From Escherichia coli (GTDB taxonomy: Bacteria > Pseudomonadota > Gammaproteobacteria > Enterobacterales > Enterobacteriaceae), in the NCBI RefSeq assembly GCF_017348835.2, contig NZ_CP071375.1: DNA of 64,000 bases; one strand, written 5' to 3'. The notes under the pieces were generated by a model, which worked only from the letters and a program-made list of their open reading frames with translations, searched no databases and had not been told where the DNA came from. Positions within the stretch are counted from its first letter, which is position 1. Every line of letters starts with the position of its first letter. The position numbers and the translations under genes are program-made. Shown here piece by piece: positions 49,532 through 58,644 of this stretch.

Positions 49532-50467
<936 letters not shown>

Positions 50468-51775: not shown

Positions 51776-52031
51776 TACTATGCTCCCGTAAATTCCGATT
51801 GGATATCGGCTATGGATTGTCCTGGCCCGCCTTTTGCGGGCAATCATAATCCTGGTCGTTACGGGCGAGTTTTTCCATCTTTTGGATGTTTTTTCAGCGT
51901 TTTCTGTTGGCTCGATTCATCAGAAAAAATGTTAGCGCGGTCAAGTTTTCACCGCAAAGGTATTTAAAAGGTATTATTAAGTGGTATTGTCATCGCGTAC
52001 CTTACATTACCTGTCATGAAGGAATTAAAAG

Positions 52032-53309
52032 ATGAAAACAACAGCAAAGCTGTCGTTCATGATGTTTGTTGAATGGTTTATCTGGGGCGCGTGGTTTGTG
52101 CCATTGTGGTTGTGGTTAAGTAAAAGCGGTTTTAGTGCCGGAGAAATTGGCTGGTCCTATGCCTGTACCGCCATTGCGGCGATCCTGTCGCCAATTCTGG
52201 TTGGCTCCATCACTGACCGCTTTTTCTCGGCGCAAAAAGTGCTGGCGGTATTGATGTTCGCAGGCGCGCTGCTGATGTATTTCGCTGCGCAACAGACCAC
52301 TTTTGCCGGGTTCTTCCCGTTACTGCTGGCCTACTCGCTAACCTATATGCCGACCATTGCGCTGACTAACAGTATCGCTTTTGCCAACGTGCCGGATGTG
52401 GAGCGTGATTTCCCGCGCATTCGTGTGATGGGCACTATCGGTTGGATTGCCTCCGGTCTGGCATGTGGATTCTTGCCGCAAATGCTGGGGTATGCCGATA
52501 TCTCACCAACCAATATTCCATTACTGATTACCGCCGGAAGTTCTGCTCTACTCGGTGTGTTTGCGTTTTTCCTGCCCGACACGCCGCCAAAAAGCACCGG
52601 CAAAATGGATATTAAAGTCATGCTCGGCCTGGATGCGCTGATCCTGCTGCGCGATAAAAACTTCCTCGTTTTTTTCTTCTGTTCATTCCTGTTTGCGATG
52701 CCGTTGGCGTTCTATTACATCTTTGCCAATGGTTATCTGACCGAAGTCGGGATGAAAAACGCCACCGGCTGGATGACGCTCGGCCAGTTCTCTGAAATCT
52801 TCTTTATGCTCGCATTACCGTTTTTCACCAAACGCTTTGGTATCAAAAAGGTATTATTGCTTGGTCTGGTCACCGCTGCGATCCGCTATGGCTTCTTTAT
52901 TTACGGTAGTGCGGATGAATATTTCACCTACGCGTTACTGTTCCTCGGTATTTTGCTTCACGGCGTAAGTTACGATTTTTACTACGTTACCGCTTACATC
53001 TATGTCGATAAAAAAGCCCCCGTGCATATGCGTACCGCTGCGCAGGGGCTGATCACGCTCTGCTGCCAGGGCTTCGGCAGTTTGCTCGGCTATCGTCTTG
53101 GCGGTGTGATGATGGAAAAGATGTTCGCTTATCAGGAACCGGTAAACGGACTGACTTTCAACTGGTCCGGGATGTGGACTTTTGGCGCGGTGATGATTGC
53201 CATTATCGCCGTGCTGTTCATGATCTTTTTCCGCGAATCCGACAACGAAATTACGGCTATCAAGGTCGATGATCGCGATATTGCGTTGACACAAGGGGAA
53301 GTTAAATGA
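52032..53309 (+). CDS. yegT: Nucleoside permease-like MFS transporter YegT (NupG/XapB family)
   Basis: 425-aa polytopic ORF MKTTAKLSFMMFVEWFIWGAWFVPLWLWL…. Confidence 0.88.
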   Translation: MKTTAKLSFMMFVEWFIWGAWFVPLWLWLSKSGFSAGEIGWSYACTAIAAILSPILVGSITDRFFSAQKVLAVLMFAGALLMYFAAQQTTFAGFFPLLLAYSLTYMPTIALTNSIAFANVPDVERDFPRIRVMGTIGWIASGLACGFLPQMLGYADISPTNIPLLITAGSSALLGVFAFFLPDTPPKSTGKMDIKVMLGLDALILLRDKNFLVFFFCSFLFAMPLAFYYIFANGYLTEVGMKNATGWMTLGQFSEIFFMLALPFFTKRFGIKKVLLLGLVTAAIRYGFFIYGSADEYFTYALLFLGILLHGVSYDFYYVTAYIYVDKKAPVHMRTAAQGLITLCCQGFGSLLGYRLGGVMMEKMFAYQEPVNGLTFNWSGMWTFGAVMIAIIAVLFMIFFRESDNEITAIKVDDRDIALTQGEVK

Positions 53310-54310
53310 AAACAGAACGTATTCTCGGTGCTCTTTATGGGCAGGCGTTAGGGGATGCGATGGGGATGCCCTCCGAGCTTTGGCCACGCAGCCGCGTTAA
53401 AGCATACTTTGGCTGGATTGACCGTTTTCTGCCTGGACCAAAGGAGAATAACGCGGCCTGTTATTTTAACCGCGCCGAATTCACCGACGATACCTCGATG
53501 GCGCTGTGTCTGGCGGATGCGTTGCTGGAACGTGAAGGCAAGATCGATCCGGATCTGATTGGGCGTAATATCCTCGACTGGGCGCTGCGTTTCGACGCCT
53601 TCAACAAAAACGTGCTAGGTCCGACCTCGAAGATTGCGCTTAACGCCATTCGCGACGGTAAACCCGTTGCTGAACTGGATAACAACGGCGTGACCAACGG
53701 CGCAGCGATGCGCGTCTCGCCATTAGGTTGTTTGCTTCCGGCGCGTGATGTTGATTCCTTTATTGATGATGTGGCGCTGGCGTCCAGCCCGACCCATAAA
53801 TCCGATCTGGCGGTTGCAGGTGCGGTAGTCATCGCATGGGCGATTTCTCGTGCCATTGACGGAGAAAGCTGGTCAGCAATTGTTGATTCACTGCCTTCAA
53901 TTGCGCGACATGCACAGCAAAAACGCATCACTACCTTCAGCGCCTCACTGGCGGCGCGGCTGGAGATTGCGCTGAAAATTGTGCGCAATGCAGACGGCAC
54001 TGAATCCGCCAGCGAACAGCTTTACCAGGTCGTTGGCGCAGGTACCAGCACTATTGAGTCCGTTCCGTGCGCCATTGCGCTGGTTGAACTGGCACAAACC
54101 GACCCGAACCGTTGCGCCGTCCTCTGCGCTAACCTTGGCGGCGATACAGACACCATCGGTGCTATGGCGACGGCAATCTGCGGCGCGTTGCATGGCATTA
54201 ACGCTATCGATCCTGCGTTAAAGGCGGAACTGGATGCGGTAAATCAGCTTGATTTCAACCGCTATGCCACAGCGCTGGCGAAGTATCGTCAACAACGGGA
54301 GGCGGCATGA
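53306..54310 (+). CDS. yegU: ADP-ribosylglycohydrolase-family protein YegU
   Basis: 334-aa ORF MKTERILGALYGQALGDAMGMPSELW…, ARH family N-terminal signature; 4-nt overlap with yegT. Confidence 0.85.
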   Translation: MKTERILGALYGQALGDAMGMPSELWPRSRVKAYFGWIDRFLPGPKENNAACYFNRAEFTDDTSMALCLADALLEREGKIDPDLIGRNILDWALRFDAFNKNVLGPTSKIALNAIRDGKPVAELDNNGVTNGAAMRVSPLGCLLPARDVDSFIDDVALASSPTHKSDLAVAGAVVIAWAISRAIDGESWSAIVDSLPSIARHAQQKRITTFSASLAARLEIALKIVRNADGTESASEQLYQVVGAGTSTIESVPCAIALVELAQTDPNRCAVLCANLGGDTDTIGAMATAICGALHGINAIDPALKAELDAVNQLDFNRYATALAKYRQQREAA

Positions 54311-55272
54311 GCGGCGCTCGATTACACACGCTGCTGCCTGAATTAACCACGCGTCAGCCGGTTATGGTGATTGGCGCGGCAGTCATTGATGTGATCGCCG
54401 ACGCTTATGCCCTCCCCTGGCGTGGGTGCGATATCGAACTGAAACAGCAGAGCGTTAACGTTGGCGGCTGCGCACTGAATATTGCCGTGGCGTTAAAGCG
54501 CCTCGGCATCGAAGCGGGTAAAGCCTTGCCGCTCGGTCAGGGCGTGTGGGCGGAGATTATTCGCAACCGGATGGCAAAAGAGGGCTTAATCAGCCTGATC
54601 GATAACGCCGAAGGTGATAACGGCTGGTGTCTGGCGCTGGTTGAGCCGGATGGCGAACGCACTTTTATGTCATTCAGCGGTGTGGAAAATCAGTGGAATC
54701 GCCAGTGGCTGGCGCGATTAACCGTTGCGCCTGGCAGCCTGCTCTATTTTTCCGGTTATCAACTGGCCTCGCCCTGCGGCGAATTGTTAGTGGAATGGCT
54801 GGAAAAGCTGCAAGACGTGACGCCGTTTATCGATTTTGGCCCACGTATTGGCGATATCCCGGACGCATTACTGGCGCGGATCATGGCCTGTCGACCTTTA
54901 GTGTCACTCAATCGTCAAGAGGCTGAGATTGCCGCCGAACGTTTTGCTTTATCCGCAGAGATAACAACACTTGGCAAGCAATGGCAGGAGAAATTTGCCG
55001 CGCCGTTGATCGTTCGTCTCGATAAAGAAGGCGCATGGTATTTCAGCAACGACGCTTCTGGCTGCATTCCGGCATATCCAAGGCAAGTTGTAGATACCAT
55101 TGGGGCGGGCGACAGTCATGCAGGTGGCGTACTTGCCGGGCTGGCTTCTGGTCTGCCACTGGCGGATGCCGTATTACTGGGCAATGCAGTGGCGTCGTGG
55201 GTTGTCGGGCATCGGGGCGGTGATTGTGCGCCAACGCGCGAGGAACTACTCCTCGCACACAAAAACGTATAG
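54307..55272 (+). CDS. yegV: PfkB-family sugar/nucleoside kinase YegV
   Basis: 321-aa ORF with PfkB C-terminal signature (DTIGAGDSHAGG); 4-nt overlap with yegU. Confidence 0.85.
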   Translation: MSGARLHTLLPELTTRQPVMVIGAAVIDVIADAYALPWRGCDIELKQQSVNVGGCALNIAVALKRLGIEAGKALPLGQGVWAEIIRNRMAKEGLISLIDNAEGDNGWCLALVEPDGERTFMSFSGVENQWNRQWLARLTVAPGSLLYFSGYQLASPCGELLVEWLEKLQDVTPFIDFGPRIGDIPDALLARIMACRPLVSLNRQEAEIAAERFALSAEITTLGKQWQEKFAAPLIVRLDKEGAWYFSNDASGCIPAYPRQVVDTIGAGDSHAGGVLAGLASGLPLADAVLLGNAVASWVVGHRGGDCAPTREELLLAHKNV

Positions 55273-55992
55273 ATCGCTGCGACAGTGGCTAATGCTGTAC
55301 TCAATAGGCCGTTGCTGTTGGTCAAGCGCCACTTGCTTGATCACCAGCACCGGTATTTTGCTATCTAACTGAATATGTGACTGAAACTCGGCATCCGGCA
55401 TCCGGGCGCTAACGCGGGAACGCGTACGTTGTGGGTAAATGTGCTGGCTGCGGAAATAGTCATAAAGAGAAATTCCGATGGCATCAACATCATGAATTAA
55501 ATGCGCCGGAACCCACGATTCCTCAATCGATACCGCTTCTTCATCGACATAGCGAATACGCTTAAGCAAAAAGACATCACTTCCCGCTTCGACCGCCAGC
55601 TGCTGCGCGACTTCTTCGGGACATTTCACGACACGCTTGTTAACCCATAGCGTATCGGGCTTTTTCCCGCGCAATACCACCTGCTGAGAAAAACCTCGCG
55701 CTTCTTTCAACGAGTATTCGAAGATGTTGTTGATCTGCGTGCCGTAACCACGCGAACGCGTCACCACGCCCTCTTCTTCCAGCGCCTGCATCGCCTTGCG
55801 CACCGTAATGCGCGAAACGCCGGTTAACTGACTTAAATCACGCTCACCGGGCAAAATATTGCCATGCTCCAGCACCCCGCTGCGCACGGCATTTTTTACC
55901 GTTTCGGCAAACTTAATATAAAGCGGCGTGTTATCCGCCGCTAAAATACGCTCGTTCAGTTGGGCAATCAGCTGGGTATGCGCTTGTTCCAT
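55246..55992 (-). CDS. yegW: GntR-family (HutC subfamily) transcriptional regulator YegW
   Basis: 248-aa ORF; N-terminal winged HTH (LPGERDLSQLTGVSRITVRKAMQALEEEG) plus UTRA-like C-terminal domain. Confidence 0.85.
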   Translation of the reverse strand: MEQAHTQLIAQLNERILAADNTPLYIKFAETVKNAVRSGVLEHGNILPGERDLSQLTGVSRITVRKAMQALEEEGVVTRSRGYGTQINNIFEYSLKEARGFSQQVVLRGKKPDTLWVNKRVVKCPEEVAQQLAVEAGSDVFLLKRIRYVDEEAVSIEESWVPAHLIHDVDAIGISLYDYFRSQHIYPQRTRSRVSARMPDAEFQSHIQLDSKIPVLVIKQVALDQQQRPIEYSISHCRSDLYVFVCEE

Positions 55993-56039
55993 TTGTCTTT
56001 TTCCTGCCAGGGAGTCTGGTGGGAGTATATCACTGCTTC

Positions 56040-56870
56040 TTATTTAAGGCGTTTCTTTATCCCCTCAACGAATGCCTGCAACTCCTCCACCGTGCCATTA
56101 AATACATTAAAATCCACCGGACCATTGATGCCATCTACCTGTCCACGGTCGGAATGCTGCCAGAAGCGCCAGGCCATGCCGTCATTGTCCGGACGACGTT
56201 GATAGTAGTGCGCCACCCACCACGGATATTCATTGAAATAGCCCGCCAGATTGGTGTGATAAAAAACGGCTCCTGAGTAAATAATCGGCTTTTTTCCCGT
56301 ACTTTTTTCGACCATTTTTAGCCACTGACTTACCCGCTTGCGTAATTCTTTTGCCGATAATTTTCCCCGCTCTTCTACGTCCAGTACCGCAGGGAAATCG
56401 CCTTGTGAGAAATCCACCGTTTGCAGAAATAATCGCGCCTGAACCGGCGCTGCTACCGACGGGGAGAAATAATGATACGCCCCGCGCAGCAGGCCATTTT
56501 CGCGGCTTAGTTGCCAGTTACGCGAAAAATACGGGTCCACCAGCTTTTCGCCTTCCGTCGCCTTAATAAAAGCAAACTGTAAGCGGATACCGTTGTCGCG
56601 CATTTTTGCCACCCGCTGCCAGTCGATCCGCTCCTGCCAGCGCGAAACATCTATTCCGTGAATGGTGTAACTGGCAGGAATGCGAATAGCGAAAGATTTA
56701 ACCGGGCGATAACCGTAGAAGTGGATGTAGTCTTTAATCTGAATTGCTGTCGAATAGAAAAAATTCACCGTCTGACGCGGATAAATTGCAACGATGGAAA
56801 TTAGCCCAAGAGCGCATAATAGAGCGGTGAGTTTTTTTCGACTGGTAATGCTTAGCTGCATTGGTTTCAT
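56040..56870 (-). CDS. yegX: Glycoside hydrolase family 25 (lysozyme-like) protein YegX
   Basis: 276-aa ORF with signal/anchor sequence and GH25-like motif (GIDVSRWQERIDW); true start may be a few codons downstream. Confidence 0.8.
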   Translation of the reverse strand: MKPMQLSITSRKKLTALLCALGLISIVAIYPRQTVNFFYSTAIQIKDYIHFYGYRPVKSFAIRIPASYTIHGIDVSRWQERIDWQRVAKMRDNGIRLQFAFIKATEGEKLVDPYFSRNWQLSRENGLLRGAYHYFSPSVAAPVQARLFLQTVDFSQGDFPAVLDVEERGKLSAKELRKRVSQWLKMVEKSTGKKPIIYSGAVFYHTNLAGYFNEYPWWVAHYYQRRPDNDGMAWRFWQHSDRGQVDGINGPVDFNVFNGTVEELQAFVEGIKKRLK

Positions 56871-56925: not shown

Positions 56926-57726
56926 TCACCACCAGGCGTGGAAGTGGTGAACCGGACCAATACCGTGACCAACTTCCAGCGTGTCGGCCTGTGCTAACGC
57001 CGATGAAAGCCAGCTTTTTGCCTCCTGTACGGTGTCAGCCCAGTTTGTATGGCGCGGGCGTAGTGCAGCCAACGCCGCAGAGAGCGTACAACCAGTGCCG
57101 TGGGTGTTTTTGGTCATAATGCGCGGTGCAGTAAATCGTTGTTCTCCCTCACGAGTAAACAGCCAGTCCGGGCTTTGTTCAGCATCCAGATGACCACCTT
57201 TCATTAGCACTGCGCCACAGCCCATCGCCAACAGCGATCGCCCTTGTTCCAGCATTTCCTGTTCGGTGCGCGCGTGTGGCGCGTCGAGCAAGGCGGCTGC
57301 TTCGGGCAAGTTTGGCGTTATTAATGAAACCTGTGGCAATAATCGACTGCGTAGCGTGGCAACTGCCGAGGGTGAAAGCAGTGGGTCGCCGCTTTTTGCC
57401 AGCATAACGGTGTCGAGTACCACGTTTTGGATCTGATAACGTTGCAACCGTTCTGCCACCGCTTCAACAATATCGGTTTCCGCCAACATACCGATTTTAG
57501 TGGTGTCGATTCGCACATCGCTGAACACCGAATCGAGCTGGGCAGCGACAAAATCAGGCTCAATGCGATACACCGACTGTACGCCACGGGTGTTTTGCGC
57601 CACCAGAGCAGTAATAACTGAGCAACCATAAGCGCCAAGTGCCGAGAAGGTTTTAAGATCGGCCTGAATCCCCGCACCACCACTCGGATCAGTACCGGCA
57701 ATCGTCAGAGCGTTAATTCGTTTCAT
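56926..57726 (-). CDS. thiD: Hydroxymethylpyrimidine / phosphomethylpyrimidine kinase
   Basis: 266-aa [37 protein letters not shown]…. Confidence 0.95.
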
Positions 57727-58511
57727 GCCTGCACCTCCTGCGTCAATTGCCAGAGCGCATCAAGGAAATGTGGAACAAAACTGCCTGGCCCCTCGCTTCT
57801 GGCGACTGCGCGTTCTCCGGCTTGTTTCATCCAGTGACAGGCAGATGCGACATTTTCCAGCGTATCGCCTGGTAACGCACAGCAGGCAGCGACAACCGCC
57901 GATAATGCACAGCCAGTTCCTACCACTTTGGTCATTAACGGATCGCCACCGTGAATACCAATGATACGATGTCCATCGGTAACATAATCCATCTCTCCAG
58001 TGACCACGACGATTGCGCCGGTTTCCCGTGCCAGTGTTTGTGCAGCGGGTATCGCGTTAGCTGCGGCGTCAGTGGTATCCACTCCCCGTCCGCCATTAGC
58101 AATGCCAGCTAATGCCATGATTTCCGAAGCATTACCACGTATCGCTGCCGGTTTAAAAGATAAAAGTTCATGACAAAAATGGCGGCGATAATCGAGCGCA
58201 CCAACCGCTACTGGATCAAGCGTCCAGGGTGTTTGAGAGCTTTTTGCTTGCTCAACGGCAGCACGCATCGCCTGTGCGCGTGGCTGCGTCAGTGTGCCAA
58301 CGTTAATCAACAAGGCACTGGCGATAGCCGCAAACTGACTGGCCTCTTCGGTTTCGATAACCATCGCTGGCGATGCACCGAGCGCCAGCAAGGTATTGGC
58401 AGTAAAGGTTTGCACCACATCGTTGGTCATGCAGTGCACAAGAGGGGAATGTTGGTGAAAAAGGTGTAACGTGTGCGCAGATTGCGCGGAACTCAGCAGG
58501 TCGACTTGCAT
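57723..58511 (-). CDS. thiM: Hydroxyethylthiazole kinase
   Basis: 262-aa [37 protein letters not shown]…; 4-nt overlap with thiD. Confidence 0.95.
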
Positions 58512-58644
58512 AGTTTGCTCCTGCCATAACGTGAAGAAGCAATGACCTGGTGGTCCGTGACTTCCCTACGCTGGCATTATCCAGATCAGGTGATACGGGT
58601 ATTTCTCAGCCTTCACGCAGAAGGGCACCCCGAGTCGTTTGGTT
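58512..58644 (-). promoter_or_regulatory. TPP (THI-box) riboswitch in the thiM leader
   Basis: Minus strand reads aaccaaacgactcggggtgcccttctgcgtgaaggctgagaaatacccgtatcacctgatctggataatgccagcgtagggaag…ggcaggagcaaactATG, which matches the well-studied E. coli thiM aptamer and expression platform as I remember it. Confidence 0.9.

Follow-up and report, generated by a model that had tools for sequence, protein, structure and literature searches.

We analyzed a 64,000-nucleotide stretch of the Escherichia coli contig NZ_CP071375.1 (assembly GCF_017348835.2; referred to as the window), in which yegT, yegU and yegV form an operon repressed by the product of the convergent gene yegW. We propose that yegTUV is a repressor-controlled cassette for the uptake and breakdown of a non-canonical riboside from the environment, and we give this proposal an even chance of being correct. 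The proton symporter YegT would import the riboside, the PfkB-family kinase YegV would phosphorylate the 5'-OH of its ribose, and YegU, a two-metal enzyme of the ARH fold, would then hydrolyze the ribosyl bond of the riboside 5'-phosphate to yield ribose 5-phosphate and the free aglycone. That the kinase acts before the hydrolase, and that the substrate belongs to this chemical class, we infer from residue patterns and gene context.

The three genes follow each other on the plus strand. yegT (52032-53309, 425 aa) encodes an NHS-family (MFS) proton symporter, yegU (53306-54310, 334 aa) an ARH-fold hydrolase of the ADP-ribosylglycohydrolase family and yegV (54307-55272, 321 aa) a PfkB-family kinase from a clade distinct from ribokinase. 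ATGA start/stop overlaps of 4 nt can be read directly in the sequence at the yegT/yegU and yegU/yegV junctions. The repressor gene yegW (also ggaR; GntR/HutC type, 55246-55992, 248 aa) is located on the minus strand. A first-pass annotation of this DNA had described these four genes together with yegX, and its gene coordinates (all five open reading frames (ORFs) are found), 4-nt overlaps and family assignments are all recovered here (YegT, PF03825 at 9e-184; YegU, PF03747 at 3e-66; YegV, PF00294 at 4e-55; YegW, GntR plus UTRA; YegX, GH25 family PF01183 at 5e-54). Its title called yegW and yegX divergent; both are minus-strand genes that converge on yegTUV, in line with its own text.

Transporter, kinase and hydrolase

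YegT scores 654.7 against the NHS-family model TIGR00889, for which the cutoff is 446.1. The GxxxD motif in its transmembrane helix 10 (G311-V-S-Y-D315) carries a protonatable aspartate, in agreement with the Asp-315 described together with the YegT crystal structure published in 2025, and the uridine-binding residues of NupG are not conserved in YegT (PMC11979927). Isothermal titration calorimetry revealed no binding of U, A, C or G (PMC11979927), and YegT did not transport uridine, cytidine, xanthosine or gemcitabine (PMC11241209). Given these binding and transport negatives, the YegT substrate is not a common nucleoside. The first-pass annotation knew of no established substrate for the module, and indeed no YegTUV substrate or reaction is reported in the literature we searched, including PMC11979927, PMC11241209 and PMC12506659.

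In YegV, the diol-binding aspartate (D28), the NXXE motif (N202-E205, NRQE) and the catalytic GAGD motif (G266-A-G-D269) are invariant among 64 clade members, and the clade is further marked by a hydrophobic residue at position 26, by Cys-55 and by an invariant G150-Y151 pair. The protein reaches a score of 80.5 with the ribokinase equivalog model TIGR02152, compared with a cutoff of 299.65. The asparagine of the ribokinase N-x-D element, the lysine of its GGK element and an aligned glutamate are replaced by valine, cysteine and alanine, respectively, in YegV. The changes to Val-26 and Cys-55 are conserved in the 64 clade members, and the position aligned with the glutamate is variable. In RbsK, these residues (Asn-14, Lys-43 and Glu-143) face the anomeric hydroxyl group (O1) and O4 of free ribose. 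YegV was still listed as an uncharacterized sugar kinase in 2025 (PMC12506659).

An operon of the same three-part make-up is present in Salmonella (stm4065-stm4066-stm4067, encoding a permease, an AIRs kinase and a putative ARH protein); there the PfkB member is a proven riboside (AIRs) 5'-kinase, and the ARH member matters for gut persistence in pigs (PMC3161100). We considered orthology of YegV with the AIRs kinase STM4066 and rejected it, as the solved AIRs kinase is absent from the 36 PDB matches of YegV at E ≤ 1e-5. The two operons are thus analogous and not orthologous.

The AlphaFold2 model of YegU (predicted local distance difference test score 97.8) resembles MJ1187 (Foldseek template modeling score 0.81) as well as ARH3 and DraG (0.76-0.78). 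Conserved residues in YegU are D17, E24, T60-D61-D62-T63, G132, H164 and D280-T281-D282-T283. The ligands for the two metal ions and the catalytic glutamate are intact, being invariant or nearly so in 99 relatives, and E24, T60-D61-D62 and D280-T281-D282-T283 align with E41, T76-D77-D78 and D314-D316-T317 of ARH3. H164, which aligns with the ARH3 histidine, is invariant in the 99 relatives, and G132 is found in at least 90% of them. In ARH1 and ARH3, a buried histidine and a glycine hold the pyrophosphate on C5'' of the distal ribose (PMC6309922), and by alignment His-164 and Gly-132 of YegU would be phosphate-contacting residues of this type. At the positions aligned with the adenine-stacking phenylalanine and tyrosine of ARH3, YegU is non-aromatic or gapped; adenosine binding differs between ARH1 and ARH3, and the missing stacking residues are thus weakly informative.

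YegU scores below the DraG and Tri1 equivalog cutoffs (77.6 versus 337 and 67.4 versus 490, respectively), and no NCBIfam equivalog model is matched above its curated cutoff by YegU, YegV or YegW. Searches by sequence and with Foldseek for a solved structure of a characterized ARH enzyme acting on a substrate other than ADP-ribose returned none, the best match being the uncharacterized MJ1187. YegU has the fold, the two-metal site, the catalytic glutamate and the histidine and glycine for the distal-ribose phosphate in common with ARH3, ARH1 and DraG, but differs from them in its equivalog scores, in the lack of the ARH3 adenine stackers and in its metabolic gene context.

The missing ribokinase residues in YegV, the retained histidine and glycine in YegU and the riboside kinase activity of the PfkB member of stm4065-stm4067 together argue for phosphorylation before cleavage. 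The first-pass annotation had the riboside de-glycosylated and then phosphorylated; judging from the YegV and YegU residues, the reverse order is more likely.

The YegU-YegV pair and its changing transporters

A search of 1.84 billion protein representatives returned 236 YegU relatives at E ≤ 1e-30. We fetched 80 genome loci, 75 of which contain a callable YegU-like ORF, and find a YegV-like gene within three genes of YegU in 62 of the 75. The association extends to distant loci (YegU below 60% identity, n = 38), 30 of which have a YegV-like gene within three genes and 18 a HutC-type regulator. Nine of the 10 YegU relatives longer than 590 aa are ARH+PfkB fusions, which occur in both domain orders, and their kinase halves are closer to YegV (E-values down to 8e-38) than YegV is to any solved ribokinase. 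Elsewhere among the relatives, one protein of 692 aa (P0160) is a tandem ARH-ARH protein, and one locus (L088, 7511-8500) encodes, next to an importer of the ABC sugar type and a regulator with GntR and UTRA domains, both an ARH-PfkB fusion and a second ARH paralogue that stands alone.

The transporter next to the pair belongs to the NHS family in Enterobacterales and Vibrio, to the NCS1 family in 14 loci from Aeromonas, Chromobacterium, Bacilli, Lactobacillales and Dialister, and to the PnuC family in 15 Clostridia loci, where it scores above the TIGR01528 cutoff. ECF or ABC systems adjoin some of the ARH+PfkB fusions. YegU and YegV are thus tightly coupled in evolution and stay adjacent across phyla while the transporter family changes. 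Nucleoside phosphorylase genes adjoin YegU-YegV relatives in two contexts. We looked for a recurrent extra enzyme that could indicate the fate of the aglycone; beyond PnuC and NCS1, no same-strand cluster within the operon runs recurs in more than two loci. A literature search for PnuC together with ARH returned nothing.

The exchange of transporters (NHS, NCS1, PnuC, ECF, ABC) and the nucleoside phosphorylase neighbors point to a riboside-type substrate. A riboside-like substrate had also been suggested by the first-pass annotation, and the gene content is still best read in this way. As candidates we consider pyridine ribosides, cobamide-derived benzimidazole or purine α-ribosides, imidazole ribosides and modified nucleosides; the vitamin-related candidates are included because the partner transporters (PnuC, NCS1, ECF) are of vitamin type. 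A wider proposal is that YegU and YegV represent a widespread, unrecognized two-enzyme route, in which an ARH-fold riboside-5'-phosphate glycohydrolase, unrelated to ADP-ribosylation, would act on a non-canonical and possibly α-linked riboside. We put this forward tentatively, as possible rather than probable. The suggestion of an α-linkage follows from the characterized ARHs, which cleave only α-linked ribose, and examples of such substrates are possibly α-ribazole-type cobamide lower-ligand ribosides and pyridine or imidazole ribosides.

The logic proposed here for yegTUV is that of psuT-psuK-psuG (yeiM-yeiC-yeiN) in E. coli, a pathway in which a dedicated nucleoside transporter, a PfkB 5'-kinase and a glycosidase lead to ribose 5-phosphate and base. 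PsuG, however, belongs to another family and cleaves a C-glycoside, whereas YegU has the ARH fold, and unlike in the psu system there is no pseudouridine-like clue and no uridine transport for YegT.

Repression by YegW and a candidate operator

YegW was renamed GgaR in 2024 and was found to have a single chromosomal target by chromatin immunoprecipitation on microarrays (ChIP-chip; Saito et al. 2024, PMC10819704). ChIP-chip and gel shifts located the primary site in the 190 bp preceding yegT, in the fbaB/yegT spacer, and a weaker site lies inside yegT (ORF nt 571-869, probe-5). The same study detected yegTUV as a single 3.3-kb mRNA on a Northern blot and found that deletion of yegW derepresses yegTUV ∼30-fold by reverse transcription-quantitative PCR, with fbaB unaffected (PMC10819704). 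The first-pass view of yegTUV as one transcription unit under YegW control is thus borne out. The DNA-binding and effector experiments that it had proposed for YegW had likewise been published: in vitro, 10-100 μM ADP-glucose releases GgaR from the spacer probe, and ADP and glucose do not, these three being the only ligands tested, with ADP-ribose, nucleotides and ribosides not among them. Cells lacking ggaR contain 2-3 times more glycogen, and their growth on minimal glucose medium is poor (PMC10819704).

YegW comprises an N-terminal GntR winged helix-turn-helix domain (PF00392 at 3e-16) and a C-terminal UTRA effector domain (PF07702 at 2e-36). Its closest solved structure is that of NagR/YvoA (6e-22), and by alignment YegW shares with NagR the R-x-R and S-L-Y (S-[IL]-Y) elements. 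We take NagR to be a sensor of sugar phosphates and the aligned elements to form its phosphate site. The YegW elements would fit a phosphate-bearing effector, and ADP-glucose may thus be an analogue of the true inducer.

No operator motif is given in the GgaR paper (PMC10819704). The control region of yegTUV is the 256-bp divergent fbaB/yegT intergenic spacer (51776-52031, 42% GC), which contains our candidate YegW operator O1 (GGTATTTAAAAGGTATTATT; 51959-52001, plus strand). In O1, two GGTAT repeats with an 11-bp spacing are accompanied by a third GGTAT at 51983 and by GTACC in inverted orientation at 51997-52001. A candidate auxiliary operator, O2 (GGTATCAAAAAGGTATTATT; 52839-52858, plus strand), is situated inside yegT (ORF nt 808-827), 880 bp downstream of O1, and the O1 and O2 20-mers are identical at 18 of 20 bases. 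The pattern GGTATNNNNNNGGTAT (GGTAT-N6-GGTAT) occurs exactly twice in the window, compared with 0.02 occurrences expected, and both copies fall within published GgaR binding regions (O1 in probe-2 and O2 in probe-5). Of 32 loci that encode a YegT orthologue, 29 have the GGTATN6GGTAT motif ahead of yegT, and these range from Escherichia to Budvicia, Hafnia, Rahnella, Pectobacterium and Vibrio. The motif is conserved within an otherwise diverged spacer, and a third GTAT and the inverted GTACC then follow. The peptide encoded by O2, FGIKKVLL, is invariant, and 13 of 30 orthologues preserve the O2 bases by their choice among synonymous codons; O2 thus appears to be an auxiliary site in certain lineages. 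We infer that GGTATN6GGTAT is a candidate YegW operator. A palindromic operator of the HutC type (GT.TA.AC or GGT...ACC) was sought in the spacer and not found; the conserved element is a direct repeat.

A promoter-like site overlaps O1 (51948-51977, plus strand; TTCACC, an 18-nt spacer and TATTAT), the overlap involving its -10 element. It is a consensus match, and its assignment is tentative since five such sites are found in the region where 4.8 would be expected by chance. Just upstream of its -35 element, TGTTAGCGCGGTCAAG (51930-51945) is a weak CRP-like half-palindrome. As a pattern match to a CRP site it was set aside, having three mismatches to the consensus and belonging to a pattern for which the window shows no enrichment. 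Enteric spacers share the TGTTA...TCA block, and systematic evolution of ligands by exponential enrichment (SELEX) has been reported to place a CRP site in the fbaB/yegT spacer (PMC3105977). What speaks for a CRP site at TGTTAGCGCGGTCAAG is this conservation together with the published SELEX hit.

In the proposed mechanism, YegW would keep the operon off by binding the tandem GGTAT repeats that overlap the promoter-like site and the copy 880 bp downstream in yegT, and a phosphate-bearing ligand, possibly the product of YegV, would release it. The 3' ends of the yegV and yegW ORFs share 27 bp in a tail-to-tail arrangement (55246-55272), which leaves no space for a terminator between them, and the pair appears as an excludon in a listing based on RNA-seq coverage (PMC12288877). 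Induced yegTUV transcription would run antisense into yegW, with positive feedback as a possible outcome. The overlap has an identical length in 23 loci from Enterobacteriaceae and Pectobacterium (L006-L026, L042, L054, L076), whereas in Budvicia, Tatumella, Gilliamella and Rahnella the constraint is looser and the gap between the two ORFs varies from -4 to +165 bp.

The locus is the one described by Saito et al. (PMC10819704), with the same single-target HutC repressor and 3.3-kb mRNA, and both published binding regions map here. That yegTUV and yegW form a locus repressed by GgaR was already known, as was the YegT structure (PMC11979927), and the first-pass label of an uncharacterized module has been overtaken by these two studies; its observations are confirmed, and its interpretation is in part supported and in part superseded by the literature. 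The 2024 paper contains neither an operator sequence nor enzyme reactions. New in the present analysis are the GGTAT operator candidate, the ARH+PfkB fusions, the adjacency of the pair despite transporter swaps, the residue patterns of YegV and YegU and the restriction of yegX, by which it is excluded from the module.

Competing readings and neighboring genes

The order implied by the first-pass annotation corresponds to a scavenging route in which YegU frees ribose and aglycone and YegV then acts as a ribokinase. The best named matches of YegV are indeed ribokinases (TIGR02152, 1e-22; PDB ribokinase, 3e-15), and Bacteroidetes ribose-utilization (Rus) loci contain "nucleoside-cleaving" enzymes of the ARH family alongside ribokinases (bioRxiv 10.1101/574913). 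These loci combine ribokinase-family kinases and variable ribose-releasing hydrolases, ARH members included, with a transporter and a regulator; yet Rus systems are of SusC/D type and sense and import free ribose, whereas yegTUV encodes a cytoplasmic hydrolase and a kinase unlike ribokinase. The fusions and the gene adjacency are compatible with either order of steps. We nevertheless consider hydrolase-first scavenging unlikely: YegV falls far below the ribokinase equivalog cutoff and lacks the asparagine, lysine and glutamate at the positions facing O1 and O4 of ribose (the first two changes being clade-wide), E. coli already has RbsK, and YegU retains the histidine and glycine that contact the 5''-phosphate in ARH1 and ARH3. 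According to the published GgaR model, yegTUV would instead use or supply ADP-glucose and promote glycogen formation, with ADP-glucose as the true YegW effector. The release of GgaR by ADP-glucose, the glycogen and growth phenotypes of the ggaR deletion and the glycogen deficiency of a yegV deletion on medium with ADP-glucose (PMC6195507) all favor it. The effector evidence, however, comes from three ligands, and no chemistry has been put forward that would let an ARH hydrolase and a PfkB kinase produce or consume ADP-glucose. In Clostridia, Bacilli, Lactobacillales and Negativicutes, moreover, the two enzymes are accompanied by importers of the PnuC, NCS1, ECF and ABC types, which argues for an imported small riboside. 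The glycogen changes could also arise indirectly from the 30-fold overexpression, for instance through altered levels of AMP or fructose-1,6-bisphosphate, two allosteric effectors of GlgC. We regard the ADP-glucose model as rather improbable.

Its ARH fold and complete catalytic set could also make YegU a genuine ADP-ribosylhydrolase that reverses the ADP-ribosylation of proteins or nucleic acids. There is, however, no ADP-ribosyltransferase gene nearby; the partners of YegU are a transporter, a kinase and a HutC repressor of catabolic type, and fusions to kinases occur among its relatives; the adenine-stacking phenylalanine and tyrosine of ARH3 are not conserved; and YegU lies far below the DraG and Tri1 cutoffs, with the uncharacterized MJ1187 as its nearest structure. 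Such a role appears highly improbable, and nothing points to ADP-ribose itself as the substrate, which the first-pass annotation had named as a type. That annotation had also grouped all five genes into one functional module. The yegX gene is adjacent, 47 bp upstream of yegW and on the same strand, but none of the loci examined outside E. coli contains it, although the yegTUVW gene order is retained there, the single GgaR target is at yegT with none near yegX (PMC10819704), yegX has its own RpoD-holoenzyme SELEX site in the thiD/yegX spacer (PMC3946193), and GH25 enzymes cut peptidoglycan, not ribosides. We find a five-gene module hardly credible.

Several points weigh against the riboside cassette that we prefer. 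The activities of YegU and YegV are predictions, which weakens the proposal. The promoter assignment is a consensus match no better than chance. Two independent lines connect the system with ADP-glucose and glycogen, namely the GgaR effector (PMC10819704) and the yegV deletion (PMC6195507), and the riboside model would cover these data as indirect or analogue effects only. ARH1 and ARH3 cleave only α-linked ribose (PMC6309922); either the substrate must be unusual, or YegU must be unlike the characterized ARHs. Ordinary nucleotides are β-linked. Finally, in three loci from Edwardsiella and Serratia marcescens (L035, L037 and L038), a YegU orthologue of 62-64% identity stands with a HutC-type regulator and with no kinase or transporter nearby, indicating that the hydrolase can persist at that site without the rest of the cassette. 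The neighbors in these loci, judged by eye, appear to be housekeeping genes (a phoP-like response regulator and a purB-like lyase).

yegX (56040-56870, minus strand) encodes a GH25 muramidase-like protein with an N-terminal membrane anchor; the RefSeq start is at 56861, 9 nt later than in our ORF call. The catalytic aspartate D74 and the D-x-E motif D164-V-E166 are present, and GH25 lysozymes in the PDB match at 1e-32. In a tblastn search over the 80 fetched loci, yegX matches E. coli loci only, and in other genera thiD follows directly after yegW. yegX is an unrelated, Escherichia-specific insertion outside the yegTUVW module.

The yegT-yegX region is flanked by fbaB, which is divergent from yegT, and by thiD. 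The window is chromosomal E. coli DNA. The 6 kb around the locus are 100% identical to E. coli PE164, where the same gene names are annotated, and the locus is matched in 5424 of 5426 complete E. coli genomes. thiD and thiM (56926-58511) come directly after yegW throughout Enterobacteriaceae (L008-L026), with yegX inserted only in E. coli. Their products are thiamine salvage kinases; the kinase of the Salmonella analogue acts on AIRs, a thiamine precursor riboside. A thiamine pyrophosphate (TPP) riboswitch is annotated upstream of thiM in PE164 (∼58546-58642 of the window), beyond the module. On the other side, gatY (49559-50419) is split into two ORFs of 140 and 142 aa; the PE164 annotation treats it as a pseudogene interrupted by an internal stop.

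Among the operons of the E. coli core genome, yegTUV is one of those still lacking an assigned reaction, and the YegU-YegV pair is conserved, and at times fused, across Proteobacteria, Firmicutes and Actinobacteria, including many gut organisms. Our results favor unusual ribosides and their 5'-phosphates over common nucleosides or free ribose as substrates and point to a specific 20-bp element as the candidate operator. The identification of the substrate would provide the ARH family with its first catabolic small-molecule activity and would explain the changes in glycogen, growth and pressure resistance upon derepression of the operon.

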